Assembly: GCA_951406725.2 (NCBI GenBank)
Contig: OX597814.1
Coordinates: 141,174,001 to 141,238,000, forward strand
Length of the DNA stretch: 64,000 nucleotides
Direction of reading: 5' to 3'
Source of the DNA: Octopus vulgaris
Lineage: Eukaryota
Under the pieces are notes generated by a model. It worked only from the letters and a program-made list of their open reading frames with translations. It made no database searches and had not been told where the DNA came from. Positions 25,156 to 37,580 of this stretch are shown here, piece by piece. How positions within the stretch are numbered: position 1 is the first letter of the stretch; every line of letters starts with the position of its first letter. A program made the translations under genes and the position numbers.

Positions 25156-25181
25156 GAAAGGAAAAACCTGTTCTATATTTC

Positions 25182-25891
25182 AGAGATGAGGAATTATTTA
25201 CATTCGACAAATATTTGCCCTCATCTTGTTTGTTGTTAACACAATGTTTCGGCTGACATACCCTCCAGCCTTCATCAGGTGTCTTGGGGGAAATTTCGTA
25301 CCTAGGTTCTCATTCCTAAGGTATTTTCGATGATATTACTGGTGTTAGTAGTCCACGCGCTTAACCACTACGCCATATCCCCGTGGGCAATTATGTAGTG
25401 AATTTTAGAGCTTATAAATCTAATATTTTCCTATCATTCCTTAATACCGGTTCCCATATGCTACTCATATCTACACTCGGTCTGCTTAGGAGGTTGTTGT
25501 GCCCTAACATATGTGCTGCTTTTAGTTTTCGTATTTTCCAGTGGTGTTCTCTATCTATTATTTTAACTTCATTCCACAGGGGGAGGTGGTCTCCATTTTT
25601 CCACACATAATCAGCTATACCCGATTTATCAATATCTCTTCGTGTCACAGCTTTGCGATGTTCGTTTACCTTTATTTTGAGGGGGCGGCGTGTTTCGCCT
25701 TTGTATAACCTACCACAGCTGCATGGGATGGAGTACACGCAGTCTTTGGTCATATTCTCTTCTATTGATGGTTTTACTCGAAGGAGATATTTGCGAAGTG
25801 TTGCATTGCTCAAGGCTGGAGAGTATATCAGCCGAAACGTTGTGATAACAACAAACAAGATGAGGACAAATATCCGTCAAATGTAAATAAT
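25182..25891 (-). mobile_element. 5'-truncated Penelope/Poseidon-type PLE with an inverted partial terminal repeat
   Basis: ORF 25412-~25805 has VYSIPCSCGRLYKGETRRPLKIKVNEH...SGIADY..W.EVKII (GIY-YIG); 25812-25891 is the reverse complement of 25193-25272. Confidence 0.9.
25238..25283 (-). ncRNA. Minimal type I hammerhead ribozyme motif
   Basis: Reverse complement: gacac CTGATGA A GGCTG gagggtatgt CAGCC GAAA CA TT gtgtt; the inverted copy at 25812 keeps GAAACGTT. Confidence 0.8.
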
Positions 25892-25909
25892 GTAAAAAAA
25901 TAACCTATT

Positions 25910-26058: not shown

Positions 26059-26131
<73 letters not shown>

Positions 26132-26148
26132 CAATTAAAATTAAAGAT

Positions 26149-27380
26149 ATGAGAAATATGGATGGTATTATAGTACAATCTGATAAAACTAGGAATCTAT
26201 ATAAATTAGATGTTAAATTATATGATAAACTATTAGGGAAAGAAATAATTAAAAAATATAAAATTGTTCCAGATGATATTCTTTATAATATTAATAAGGC
26301 CTCTAAATTAGTAATGTTAAAATATGAGTTGGATAATAAAACTGAACCTTATGTACCTTTGCACCCCAGAATTACTCTTAAAGACCATAAAGATAATTTT
26401 TATTCAGACCCTAAAGTTAGATTAATTTGCCCATGTAAATCTGACCTAGGTAAATTAAGTAAATTTATTTTAGATAAATATATCGATAAGTTAAATAAAC
26501 TTAATTATTTAAAATTATGGTTTAGTAATAACTATACATTGAAATGGTTTAATAATATTAAAGATAAAAATCGTTATAAATTTATTCAAATAGATATAGA
26601 TAATTATTATTCTTCTATTACTGAAATTGTGTTTAATAAAGCGCTTATTTTCGCAATGAATAAAGTGGGTATGTCACACGAAGAAGTTAATGTAATTAAA
26701 ATGGCTAGGAAATCGCTTATTAAATATAAAAATAAATTATTGGCTAGGAATGATACCAGAGATTGTTTTGATATACCTATGGGAGCACCAGATTCTGCAC
26801 AGGCTACTGATTTAGTAGGTATTTTTCTTTTATCTGAACTCCAATTAGAAAATCTTAAGATAGAGGGTGGCTTATATAGAGACGATCTTCTACTAGTTAC
26901 AAAGAATTGTACTAATAGGAATCTAGAAGTATATAAGAAAAAACTATATAGTTTCTTTAAAAGATATGGTTTAAGTATTACTATATATAAGGAGAATTAT
27001 AATGTTAATTATTTAGATGTTAATTTTAATCTAAGTACTGGTAAAACACAACCATATCATAAACTTAATGAGAACCTTAGATATATAAATGTTAATAGTA
27101 ATCACCCATTTTCTATTAAAAAATCGTTGATTAATAATATAAGTAAACGTATTTCATTACTCTCTTATGATATAGAGATTTTTAATAAACATGCTAATTA
27201 TTATAATGAGGCCCTTAGAGGGGCAGGTTATAATAGGAATATTAAATTTTATACTATTAGTGATAAAGATTTAAATGATAATTTTCGAGATACTTCTAAT
27301 AATAATTATAATTTTGTTAGTTTTAGTGGTAAAAATAATAGATATTATAAAAATAATAATAAAAATGATAAAAATAAAAA

Positions 27381-27411
<31 letters not shown>

Positions 27412-28311
27412 AATACAAATAAGAATAATAAAAATAAAAATAAATTTAATAATAATTATAATAATTATATTGATAAAATTAATAATATTAATAATTCCTT
27501 AAATGCTGTACATAGATATAATTCTGATAATAATTTTAATAAAATAAAGAATTATAAATATATTTATAATAATGACAATAATAATAAGGTTAATAAGAAT
27601 AAAATTTGGTTAATAGTTCCTTATGGAGATCAAGTAAAAACGAATATTATCAAAGCGATTTTAGATGTTATAGAACTATTTATTAGAGATAATCGTAAAT
27701 ATAGAAACATTTTCTCTAGTAATAATTTTGGAGTAAGTTATTCTACCACTAATAATGTAGGTAACATTATTTCTTCATTTAATAAATTTAAACTGAATAA
27801 TTTTTATAAAAAGAAATTATTTGATAATAATAATAATAATGATAAGACTTATATTAATTGTACTTGTAGAGATAAATCTAATTGTATATTAAATAATAAT
27901 TGTGATATTAACGATGTAGTGTATAAATGTATAGTTACATTACATGATAATAACTTTAAGAATAATAATTACCCAAAAGCGGTTTATATAGGGTCTACTT
28001 CCTCAAAAATAAAATTAAGAATCGCACAACATATGAATTCTTTTAAAAATAAAAACTTAATCAACTCAACTGGACTTAGTAAGTACATTTGGAGTCTTAA
28101 ATCACAAAATATTAATTATAGTTTAATTTGGGAAATAATTTGTAAAACTAAATCATATACTATAGGAGCTAATTGTTGTTATTTATGCTCTAATGAGTTT
28201 AAAGAAATTTTATTTTATAAGTATGATAATTTACTTAATACAGGTGAAGAGCGCAAAATAAAATGCAGACATAGGTTACTTTACCTATATAATAAGTTTC
28301 ATGATAAATAA
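26149..28311 (+). CDS. PLE polyprotein: reverse transcriptase + Asn-rich insert + Cys linker + C-terminal GIY-YIG endonuclease (720 aa from first ATG)
   Basis: Uninterrupted frame with SDKTRNLY, ITLKDHK..P.VRLI, IDIDNYY, PMGAPDSA, GLYRDDLL, NYLDV, SNHP, CTCRDKSNC, VVYKC..YIGST..LRIAQH, CYLC, LLN..KCRH. Confidence 0.9.
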
Positions 28312-29017
28312 CAATAATAGTTCCCTATTAAAGGTTACTTTAGTTTAATATTAAATTTAGTTTAGAGTATTATATATATTTAGTTATGTAGTCTAGGCTT
28401 TAATTATAGTTAGTCTTTAATTGATATTTCTTTGTTTTAATTAGTTCATTTTTAATGTATATTAATATATAACAGTTTATGGTACGTTAAAACTTTAATA
28501 ATTTATATTAGATTTATTTTCTTTTCTTTACTTATTTATTTATTTTATTTTATTCTGTATTTTTATTATGTATATGTTATATGTATATTTGAGGATATAT
28601 TCTTATGGATGATTGGGTGTATTTAGTGGTGTATATATTGAGTTTTGTATGTATGTGTGAATGTTTACGATCCCTTTGTATTTTATTTGGTATGTTGAAT
28701 TGACAGTTTTTATTTGGGTATTGTCTGTTATAATACACGTTTATATAGATATTTGGGTGATTGTCCGTGAATATGTAGGTATGGGTGTGTATGTATGTGT
28801 GCGTGTGTACAAGTGCAAGTGTAGATGCGGGAGTGTATGAGTGCTATGTAATTGAGTGGGATTATTTATGCACTTGTATACATGAATGTTTTGAAAGTGC
28901 GTGTGTTTGCACCTGTCTGCGTGTACACACTCATATATAAATATAAATATATTAATATTTATTTACTTTTTTGAAAGACTGTTTCTTATATATATGTGTA
29001 TGTGATGTTATGTGTGA

Positions 29018-29052
<35 letters not shown>

Positions 29053-31138
29053 TTATATATATATATGTTTATGTTTGTATATGTATTTATTTAATAATTT
29101 ATTGAGTGTGGGAATGAATATATTGGTGTATAAATCGAGGTTTGTACGTATGTATATGTTTGTGAGAGTGTGTATATGGTTATGTTTGTGGGTGTGTGTA
29201 TATATGTGTGTGTATTTGTGTGTATTGTTTTTTGGTAAGGGGTTTTATTTGTATGTATGGATTTCATTTATCATGATTATTTTATTTAGAATTTTTTAGT
29301 ATTTTAGTCCCCATGCATTATGGCTTGGTTTGTTGCTCATGGTAGTTTTTTTATTGGGTATTGTCTTGTAGCCATTTATACGTATATTTGGATGTCTAGG
29401 AGAGTGTCCGTGAATATGTATGTTGCATGGGTGTGTGTGTATGTGTGCGCGTGTATAAGTGCATGTGTAGATTTGGGAGTGCATGGTGCTATGTAAAAGT
29501 GTGTGCTTGTGTATGCACTTGTATACATGCATGATTGATGTGCGTGAGATTGCACCCATTTTTAAGGATGTATATGTTTATTTATCTGTATGGGTGTGGG
29601 AGTGAATTTTTGGTGTATATATCGAGGTTTATACGTATGTATAGGTATGTGTGAGTGAGGTGGGTATTTGTATATGTCGTGGGTGTGTGGTTTACGTGTG
29701 TGTATTTGTGTGTGAATGTATAGGTTAGGGGGATTGCTATATAGGTATGTTATAGTGTTTAGTAAAGGGAGGTTTTATCATTATATGTATTTATGAGTTT
29801 TAGTTTATCATGGTAGTTTTATTAAAGAATTTGTAGTAATTTATGTCTATTTATGATGTTTGTTATTTTATCACATTATTCCATTCATAATTTTTAAGTA
29901 ATGTTCGTTTACCACGTGAATATAATTTTTAATTCCATTTATTCCATTCATAATTTTAAATGACGTTCGTTTCCAGAGCGCGTATACTTTTTATACATAT
30001 GTTAGGTTCTTATGGTAACGTAATTTTGTTTGACGTTTTTAACGGCTAGAGTTTAATTTCACTTCATAAATTGAAACTGATTTGAAAGTATGTATATTTT
30101 TTTCTCCTTATGTTAATCTTGTTACTTATGATATTCTGGTTACTTATGAAGTATTTTATATTTCGTATTATGTGTAGTAATGTTGTTTTTCTTTTGAGTG
30201 TTTATGTATGTGTGAATGTGTGTGTGTGCGTGCGTATTTTAGTTGTGTAATTTATTTATCTGTATGAGTGTGGGTGTGAACATATTGTTGTATATATCGA
30301 GTTTAGTACGTATGTATATGTATATGTGAGGGGGTATAAGTATATGTTGTGTGTGTGTGTTTTACGTATGTATATTTGTGTGTGAATGTATATATGGAGA
30401 TTGCTATATAGGTATAATTGTGTATGGTAAAGGGAGTTTTATTATTATATGTATATGGGTTTCATTTATCATGATGGTTTATTAATGATTTGTAGTAAAT
30501 TCTGTATATTTAAGTTGATTATATATTATTCCATTCATAATTTAAAAAAAAAAACGTTCGATCACCACGTGCAAAGAATTGTTTATTTTGCTTTTGAGTG
30601 TTTATGTATGTGTGAATGTGTGTGTGTGTGTGTGTGGGATTATTTGCGTAATTTATTTATCTGTATAGATGTGGGTGTGAATATATTGGTGTATATATCG
30701 AGTTCTGTATGTTTGTATATGTATGTGTGAGCGGGTATACGTATATTGTTTATGAATGTGGGTTGTATGTGTGTGTGAGGGAGTATGAATAAGTATTGTG
30801 TTGAAGTATTTGGCTATTTTATTTATTTATCGTTGCCTAGACGTTTTTATGTGTATGTATAAGGATATATATATATATAGGTGTGTGAGTTAGTGTATGT
30901 ATTTAGATATGGTTATATATACTTAGTTATATGTGTATGGGTGTATATATAGTTTGTTTTTATTTTGTTTTATATTTAATTGTTGATAGGTTTATTTTAG
31001 TTTATATATTGATTATATATGGATTATATATAGGTTATATATAGATTATATATTTATATTTTTTCATTGATACTTTAATTATTTTAAAATTATTTTTTAT
31101 ACTTATATTTTAAAATATTGATATTTTAGATCGGAAAT

Positions 31139-31181
31139 CCACCTGAAGATTGTCGATCAAGACATGAAACAATTGTAGTGG
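31139..31181 (+). ncRNA. Minimal type I hammerhead ribozyme in PLE 3' terminus
   Basis: ccac CTGAAGA t tgtc gatcaa gaca t GAAA caattg TA gtgg; palindromic stem III; predicted cleavage after GUA at 31177. Confidence 0.8.
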
Positions 31182-31272
31182 CGGTTTTTTTACTTTTTAT
31201 TAAAATTTTATGTATTGATTAAGTCTTTCCTTGTTTGTTTTGCAAAATAGTGGTTTTGTCTCTAATTAATAT

Positions 31273-31335
<63 letters not shown>

Positions 31336-31372
31336 AAAAAAGGAGATGTCGAACACGAGTGGTGATATATAA

Positions 31373-31636
31373 AAAAGGAAATGAAGAAAATGCTGACAAA
31401 TAATTGAAGTAATTTAAGTAATTTAATTAGGTGAAAGTTCTTTTTACCGGTTGCGCATTTGTTATGCTTATCAAAATATAAAAGAGAGATTAGAGTTCCT
31501 TTCTAGAAAGGAACTCTAATCTCTCTTTTATATTTTGATAAGCATAACAAATGCGCAACCGGTAAAAAGAACTTTCACCTAATTAAATTACTTAAATTAC
31601 TTCAATTATTTGTCAGCATTTTCTTCATTTCCTTTT
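31373..31636. repeat. Perfect 264-bp spacerless palindrome between (TA)n tracts (probable fold-back PLE tail)
   Basis: Centred on ttct|agaa (31504/31505); arms match base for base as far as I can read. Confidence 0.92.
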
Positions 31637-31643
31637 ATATATA

Positions 31644-36756: not shown

Positions 36757-37580
36757 AACGACGACGACGACGAGGGCGATGGCGACGACGAGGGCGATGG
36801 CGACGACGACGGCGATGGCGACGACGAGGGCGATGGTGACGACGACGAGGGCGATGGCGACGACGAGGGCGATGGCGACGACGACGAGGGCGATGGCGTC
36901 GACGAGGGCGATAGCGACGACGAGGGCGATGGCGACGACGAGGGCGATGGCGACGACGAGGGCGATAGCGACGACGAGGGCGATGGCGACGACGAGGGCG
37001 ATGGCGACGACGAGGGCGATAGCGACGACGAGGGCGATGGCGACGACGAGGGCGATGGCGACGACGAGGGCGATGGCGACGACGAGGGCGATAGCGACGA
37101 CGAGGGCGATGGCGACGACGAGGGCGATGGGCGACGACGAGGGCGATGGCGACGACGAGGGCGATGGCGACGACGAGGGCGATGGCGACGACGAGGGCGA
37201 TGGCGACGACGAGGGCGATGGCGACGACGAGGGCGATGGCGACGACGAGGGCGATGGCGACGACGAGGGCGATAGCGACGACGAAGGCGATAGCGACGAC
37301 GAGGGCGATGGCGACGACGAGGGCGATGGCGACGACGAGGGCGATGGCGACGACGAGGGCGATGGCGACGACGAGGGCGATGGCGACGACGAGGGCGATG
37401 GCGACGACGAGGGCGATGGCGACGACGACGAGGGCGATGGCGACGACGACGAGGGCGATGGCGACGACGATGAGGGCGATGGCGTCGACGAGGGCGATGG
37501 CGACGACGAGGGCGATGGCGACGACGAGGGCGATGGCGACGACGAGGGCGATGGTGACGACGAGGGCGATGGCGACGACA
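36757..37580. repeat. GC-rich 18-bp minisatellite (GACGACGAGGGCGATGGC)n, roughly 45 units
   Basis: Direct reading; occasional 21-bp and GATAGC variant units. Confidence 0.95.

Follow-up and report, generated by a model that had tools for sequence, protein, structure and literature searches.

The Hydra clade of Penelope-like elements (PLEs) and the tails carried by PLEs are already described in print. According to Craig et al. (2021, PMC8557442), Hydra elements, including Hydra-1_Obim, share the RWK and DKT motifs, a CxCX5C linker and an endonuclease (EN) with CxxC and CxH and without CCHH. They further share insertion into (TA)n, a hammerhead near the 3' end and a single ORF. Short length is a typical rather than a diagnostic trait of the clade, with 2.1-3.0 kb listed, and the accessible text of that paper describes no edited UTR hairpin for Hydra elements.

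ADAR-type A>G changes in inverted repeats are known from two avian retroviruses (review PMC12925331), in which near 50% A>G in the inverted-repeat region was recorded via reverse transcription, as in the family described here. The present case differs in concerning a germ-line retrotransposon that passed the changes on, multiplied them and acquired more in later rounds. APOBEC 'DNA editing' of LTR elements (Knisbacher and Levanon, PMC4866542) likewise left strand-specific hypermutation fixed in genomic copies. In that system, however, G>A arises on cDNA in vertebrates and is reported absent from 19 invertebrates, whereas the changes reported here are A>G, tied to RNA pairing and found in an invertebrate. 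Our full-text literature search, conducted largely at abstract level and with most subscription literature outside its reach, found no report of ADAR edits fixed in genomic retrotransposon copies.

The window analysed here is a 64,000-nt stretch of the Octopus vulgaris genome. Its element at 26131-31277 belongs to a young, enlarged Hydra-clade Penelope-like family and has lost its 5' part; it is ordinary as a truncated insertion and valuable as an unedited reference for a lineage that was probably edited. From sequence comparison, we consider it highly probable that a 3'-UTR hairpin in the sister lineage was hyper-edited by ADAR on element RNA and written into DNA by the element's reverse transcriptase (RT), the window copy being an unedited, truncated relative. 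The unedited window copy, the once-edited hairpin and its flipped, re-edited descendants form a dated before-and-after series, which would document how RNA edits pass into heritable DNA in an animal noted for its extreme A-to-I editing. Such a series makes it testable whether ADAR restricts or helps a germ-line retrotransposon, and it shows a way for a PLE UTR to double in length.

The window copy and its Hydra-type family

The window copy lies on the plus strand between two unstranded target microsatellites, (TA)36 at 26059..26130 on the 5' side and (TA)28 at 31276..31332 on the 3' side. Its RT-EN ORF remnant (26131..28311) is stop-free over 726 aa, or 720 aa from the ATG at 26149. Within it, the RT core extends over 26584..26886, from IQIDIDNYY (26584) to YRDD (26875), followed by an Asn/Lys insert of about 110 aa (27253..27603), which lies in the basic loop after the RT thumb and is predicted to be disordered. 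The GIY-YIG endonuclease occupies 27916..28272, with motif starts at 27916 (VVYK), 27985 (YIG), 28177 (CYLC) and 28264 (CRH). A 3' UTR of 2,966 nt (28312..31277), composed of diverged internal repeats, contains no hyper-edited tile and ends in the short, tail-less form described below. The flanking (TA)n, the 720-aa frame with YRDD, linker and C-terminal CRH, the Asn/Lys insert and the roughly 3-kb UTR had all been read from the window alone in the original prediction, and each was found where claimed.

Full-length copies encode 840 aa. Their 110 extra codons open with MDFTG and include an R.KWK motif; upstream of MDFTG lie about 140 nt and then a pLTR made of the 3'-UTR end. Since both the 110 N-terminal codons and the pLTR are absent, the window copy is a non-autonomous, truncated insertion. 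The predicted loss of the N-terminus by 5' truncation is thereby borne out, and the description 'ORF-intact' holds for the remnant frame and fails for the whole ORF. An unbroken frame of 838-852 aa from the MDFTG start is present in eight copies among L001-L030, the 30 best ORF matches.

A genome-wide ORF search, which recovered the full 5' end in sister copies, returned 1,841 candidates, of which 40 matches were scored. Most of these are 93-99% identical over the ORF, in agreement with the young lineage that had been proposed. With the Asn insert left out, divergence among L001-L030 ranges from 0.0 to 4.7%; the copy nearest to the window differs by 0.9% and the youngest cluster by 0.1-0.5%.

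Every motif listed for Hydra by Craig et al. is present, as the assignment to this clade demanded. A single ORF joins the RT to a C-terminal GIY-YIG domain with no N-terminal CxC, and apart from the insert it aligns collinearly with 14 homologues, each about 700 aa long; the IFD was judged absent from this alignment alone. The RWK motif appears as RIKWKAF in full-length copies and was removed from the window copy by truncation. DKT replaces DKG (SDKT, 26179..26190), the linker reads CTCRDKSNC (27859..27885), and the alignment shows CYLC and CRH in the EN without CCHH. All 29 complete 3' ends (L081-L109) enter TA or TTA repeats, directly or via a tail, and a putative hammerhead has its core and stems kept across copies. 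In a quick tree of 34 proteins, with seven outgroup proteins of one kind (three with ADKG) and no Neptune, Nematis or Naiad rows, the family falls on a long branch within the DKT-type group (support 100). Its sister there is the protein P0002, and the next branch is a second, compact Hydra-type family of the same genome.

Relative to described Hydra elements (PMC8557442), the family stands apart in its 5.7-6.3-kb unit, 840-aa protein, 110-aa Asn insert and ORF GC of about 21%. The units measure 5,671 nt (L121) and 6,310 nt (L033), against 'generally short (<3 kb)' in print, and the prediction of an enlarged lineage is upheld. So is that of an AT-biased one, with GC of 24%, 10% and 22% in RT, insert and EN, versus 37% in the second Hydra-type family. 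That the family is not already catalogued is supported in part: Hydra-1_Obim (2,507 bp, PMC8557442), compared by eye, is clearly different in protein, UTR and hammerhead. P0014 in the quick tree resembles Hydra-2_Amil, a likeness also judged by eye only. The main text of the octopus repeat annotation PMC13282606 contains neither 'Hydra' nor 'editing', and its library may hold the family. A Pfam search of the window element gave no significant match.

Several relatives were observed alongside. The nearest protein, P0002 (43%), also contains an Asn-rich insert, but in another position, ahead of the linker. A related-element piece, P0041, is 64% identical over 106 aa and lies within an Octopus bimaculoides sulfotransferase gene model, which may be mis-annotated. 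The second Hydra-type family (L051-L080) comprises near-identical copies with open 727-aa frames, a unit of about 3.4 kb, a UTR of about 1.15 kb, GC of 37% and no GC skew; by eye, it is unlike Hydra-1_Obim.

Asn insert, element ends and untranslated region

The Asn insert is present in all 40 scored copies, which settles the proposed check of whether other copies lack it, and is absent at the same place from the 14 aligned homologues. The predicted retention of frame stands for 33 of 40 copies, with a length-variable segment measured at 312-435 nt; slippage in triplets would by itself tend to preserve the frame as well. A model of the full-length protein is confident except at residues 494-603, which correspond to the insert (pLDDT <50), and its best fold matches are telomerase RTs. 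Outside the insert, internal branches carry 59 replacement and 68 silent changes versus 149 and 68 on the tips (p 6e-5); inside it, internal branches carry 41 replacement and seven silent changes. Purifying selection thus acts on internal branches outside the insert and not within it. The insert is probably a tolerated disordered loop.

Near the 3' end, a minimal type I hammerhead motif (31139..31181, plus strand), which the original prediction had not mentioned, has a palindromic stem III and a predicted cut after 31177. Stem III occurs in two forms, both palindromic; in L136/L137 its two sides have changed together. Neither Rfam nor single-strand folding detected this minimal hammerhead. Stem II differs in a compact variant at L136:3960-7470 (minus strand).

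Of 29 complete 3' ends, 16 stop like the window copy and 13 continue with a tail of 83 nt identical to the beginning of the 5' UTR. All 13 two-armed insertions in which both ends could be classified carry the tail on exactly one arm; in four more, the direct end is out of range. Partial tandems and inverted arms are shared with the pLTR and tail of Penelope (Craig et al. 2021; Frangieh et al. 2024, PMC11167929). Extension of one end only is shared as well and was read in those papers as the outcome of two RT start sites; two such internal sites were found in vitro for an anole element (PMC11167929). By analogy, the one-end-only tail is consistent with two internal RT start sites spaced by about 83 nt. 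It differs from the Penelope tail in its length, about 83 nt versus 30-40 nt, and in matching the opening stretch of the 5' UTR; it also provides a sharp prediction of the Hydra RT start position.

On its sense strand the window 3' UTR is rich in G and T, with 6% C and a GC skew of +0.56. The UTR is assembled from duplicated units, in a mosaic that varies from lineage to lineage. A long 3' UTR as a family trait is confirmed in the window, in the L050 group and in L137, whose ORF is 87% identical, and contradicted by the compact copy L136, whose UTR measures about 330 nt in a unit of about 2.98 kb, with the short form repeated in its pLTR.

Substitutions on internal branches are biased on the sense strand towards C>T, C>A and A>T, whereas tips are nearly symmetric for transitions. 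At ORF third positions, internal branches show C>T at 0.39 versus G>A at 0.10; in the UTR, A>T stands at 20/547 versus T>A at 6/989. These strand-biased changes account for the direction of the AT and G/T bias, and RT error is its likely cause. ADAR was considered as the source of the G/T skew of the window UTR and rejected. Neither comparison with 12 other lineages nor comparison with its own repeats revealed an edited tile in the window copy. Outside hairpins, the A>G excess is weak (9/547 versus T>C 6/989, p 0.06) and absent at ORF third positions; the UTR skew is therefore not due to editing. A stronger A>G excess (19/211) shrank to 9/362 once hairpin-lineage copies were dropped.

The A>G hairpin of sister copies

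Examination of relatives beyond the window brought to light a 3'-UTR hairpin rewritten by A>G, invisible from the window sequence alone. It is carried by 26 of the 30 best ORF matches, a sample biased by selection for likeness to the window ORF, and is missing from L001 (the window copy), L025, L029 and L030. Among 20 loci picked by the window 3' UTR, only three have the full hairpin. A search with the edited arm, in which 40 of 190 candidates were scored, gave five full hairpins, one inner part and 34 partial ones. In L049, L117, L118 and L125, the UTR departs from the window path at about 29981 and continues through an inverted arm into a direct arm, with the centre near 30222 between them. 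The window holds the unedited sources on its plus strand: 29502..29637 for the outer part of the arms and 30221..30532 for the inner part of both.

Compared with the window, L049 shows sense-strand A>G at 166 of 306 scored A in both arms, namely 114 of 196 A in the left arm, with 14 other differences over 435 columns, and 52 of 112 in the paired part of the right arm. The changes end where pairing ends, the last at 29606, and none of the 59 A in 29631-29880 is edited. Over 3,598 control columns of ORF and unpaired UTR, the same two copies differ by A>G at 4/1,238 and T>C at 6/1,472. Clustered A>G on one strand in both dsRNA-forming arms, confined to the pairing sequence, conforms to ADAR action. 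Arm-versus-arm mismatches in L117 comprise 165 of G.U type, none of A.C type and six others, and its hairpin folds at -609 kcal/mol (z -51). Polarity follows from the window, which matches each arm at the A state even though the arms differ from each other.

The neighbour context points the same way. With arms pooled, A after G is edited in 9/29 cases versus 157/277 for other A (p 0.01), and A before A in 48/71 versus 118/235 (p 0.01); in the right arm alone, the depletion after 5' G is not significant (8/21, p 0.47). Avoidance of 5' G and preference for 3' A are the invertebrate ADAR context given in PMC5625713, a survey that ranks octopus among its two most hyper-edited species. When 163 sequences were scanned, hairpins of this kind turned up in this Penelope family alone; the second Hydra-type family lacked them at all 30 loci examined. 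Other G.U-biased hits outside the element (L111, L114) were judged to be degenerate microsatellites.

The hairpin has a later history. In 25 of L002-L027 and in L135 it was flipped, being reverse-complemented after window position 28735. The 23 fully covered flipped copies carry 36-86 new sense-strand A>G changes out of about 393 A, and three partial ones carry 7-33. T>C is limited to 2-8 of about 177, and A after 5' G is edited in 0-2 of 29 cases. The A>G sets are partly nested and partly private, and the private component suggests several later rounds. An inverted arm whose unedited source lies at 29777..29981 (plus strand) was also edited in later rounds, with 37-44 of 95-97 A changed in L031, L033 and L043. 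The ORF tree places hairpin-free forms first, followed by the window copy, the once-edited L028 and the flipped clade; L121, like the window copy, precedes L028. All eight full-length ORFs among L001-L030, as well as the youngest cluster, belong to the repeatedly edited clade. As a separate observation, the flipped, C-rich arm decays fast by sense-strand C>T (14 to 52) with G>A flat; in L004 and the L007 group, these changes fall mostly at CpA rather than CpG (33/147).

Origin of the hairpin and neighbouring elements

A sequence of four steps would account for these patterns. Insertion into (TA)n, often as two arms with one inverted, leaves ends at two sites about 83 nt apart; the pattern is directly visible, and the nicking and priming behind it would follow Penelope biochemistry. 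A two-armed piece then joined the UTR of an ORF-bearing copy, with the junction seen in the sequences and its route presumed. With such a piece in its UTR, the transcript folds back on itself over about 440 bp. About half of the A in both arms became G on the sense strand, a change that we attribute to ADAR. Finally, the edited form was copied to several chromosomes, was recaptured upside down and gained further A>G sets. The window copy would have branched off just before the two-armed piece was captured, retaining the unedited state, and the youngest and full-length copies seen belong to the edited lineage.

It is possible, though we would not favour it, that a self-feeding cycle operates, in which fold-back insertions create UTR dsRNA, host ADAR edits it, the element's reverse transcription makes the edits heritable in the germ line, and the edited form gains an advantage by disarming dsRNA defence. 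If such a cycle is real, RNA editing would be a recurrent, selected source of heritable mutation. Slightly more doubtful is the reading that the edited lineage spread because editing weakened a perfect dsRNA, allowing escape from dsRNA silencing or retention. The concentration of full-length ORFs and of the youngest cluster in the repeatedly edited clade speaks for it, as does the fast C>T decay of the flipped, C-rich arm. Yet one lineage in a biased sample is involved, the fixed hairpin still folds almost fully via G.U pairs, and a copy with a compact UTR (L136) also transposed. Under the same ADAR-based explanation, the edits may instead have been neutral passengers in a dispensable UTR.

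Rival sources of the A>G changes fare considerably worse. RT misincorporation on structured RNA under nucleotide imbalance could draw on the strand-biased substitutions of the lineage, both C>T over G>A at ORF third positions and A>T over T>A in the UTR. These biases, however, reach a few percent and are mostly not A>G, whereas the hairpin change affects 54% of A, is of a single type, keeps to paired arms and follows the ADAR neighbour pattern; we regard this source as very unlikely. An origin on DNA seems just as improbable, whether by reversed direction (APOBEC-like G>A of a G-rich ancestor) or by adenine deamination in a cDNA or DNA hairpin. Precedents exist in vertebrate genomes, where G>A edits of LTR elements have become fixed (PMC4866542), and in the editing of DNA in hybrids by ADARs, known here from a title cited in PMC12925331, and deamination of a sense-strand DNA hairpin is compatible with the sequence. 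The reversed direction conflicts with the A state of both arms being held at once by the window and older lineages; cDNA editing would give sense-strand T>C and would not stop at the hairpin ends. An assembly or sequencing artefact can practically be dismissed, as 40 scored loci on many contigs share the edited hairpin (34 in part), contigs of four out of four public runs from three studies cover at least 90% of the edited stretch, and the hairpin variants follow the ORF tree. ADAR editing of element RNA remains the explanation that we prefer.

Other repeats surround the window copy. Within the same (TA)n, 31333-31640 forms a perfect palindrome (about 270 bp) in which just one arm is extended, by 32-40 nt, and looks like the two-armed end of another Penelope-like element. 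Of 896 candidates for its family, 40 were scored, many with the same centre and different spacer lengths. On the minus strand, 25177-25900 is a truncated piece of a canonical (DKG-type) Penelope-like element. It has a GIY-YIG frame at 25412-25876, an inverted end and, near 25278, a hammerhead of its own, and it belongs to an older, abundant family, with 150 scored of 13,192 candidates at 76-89% aa identity. Further downstream, 36765-37579 is a GC-rich tandem array of 44 copies of an 18-nt unit.
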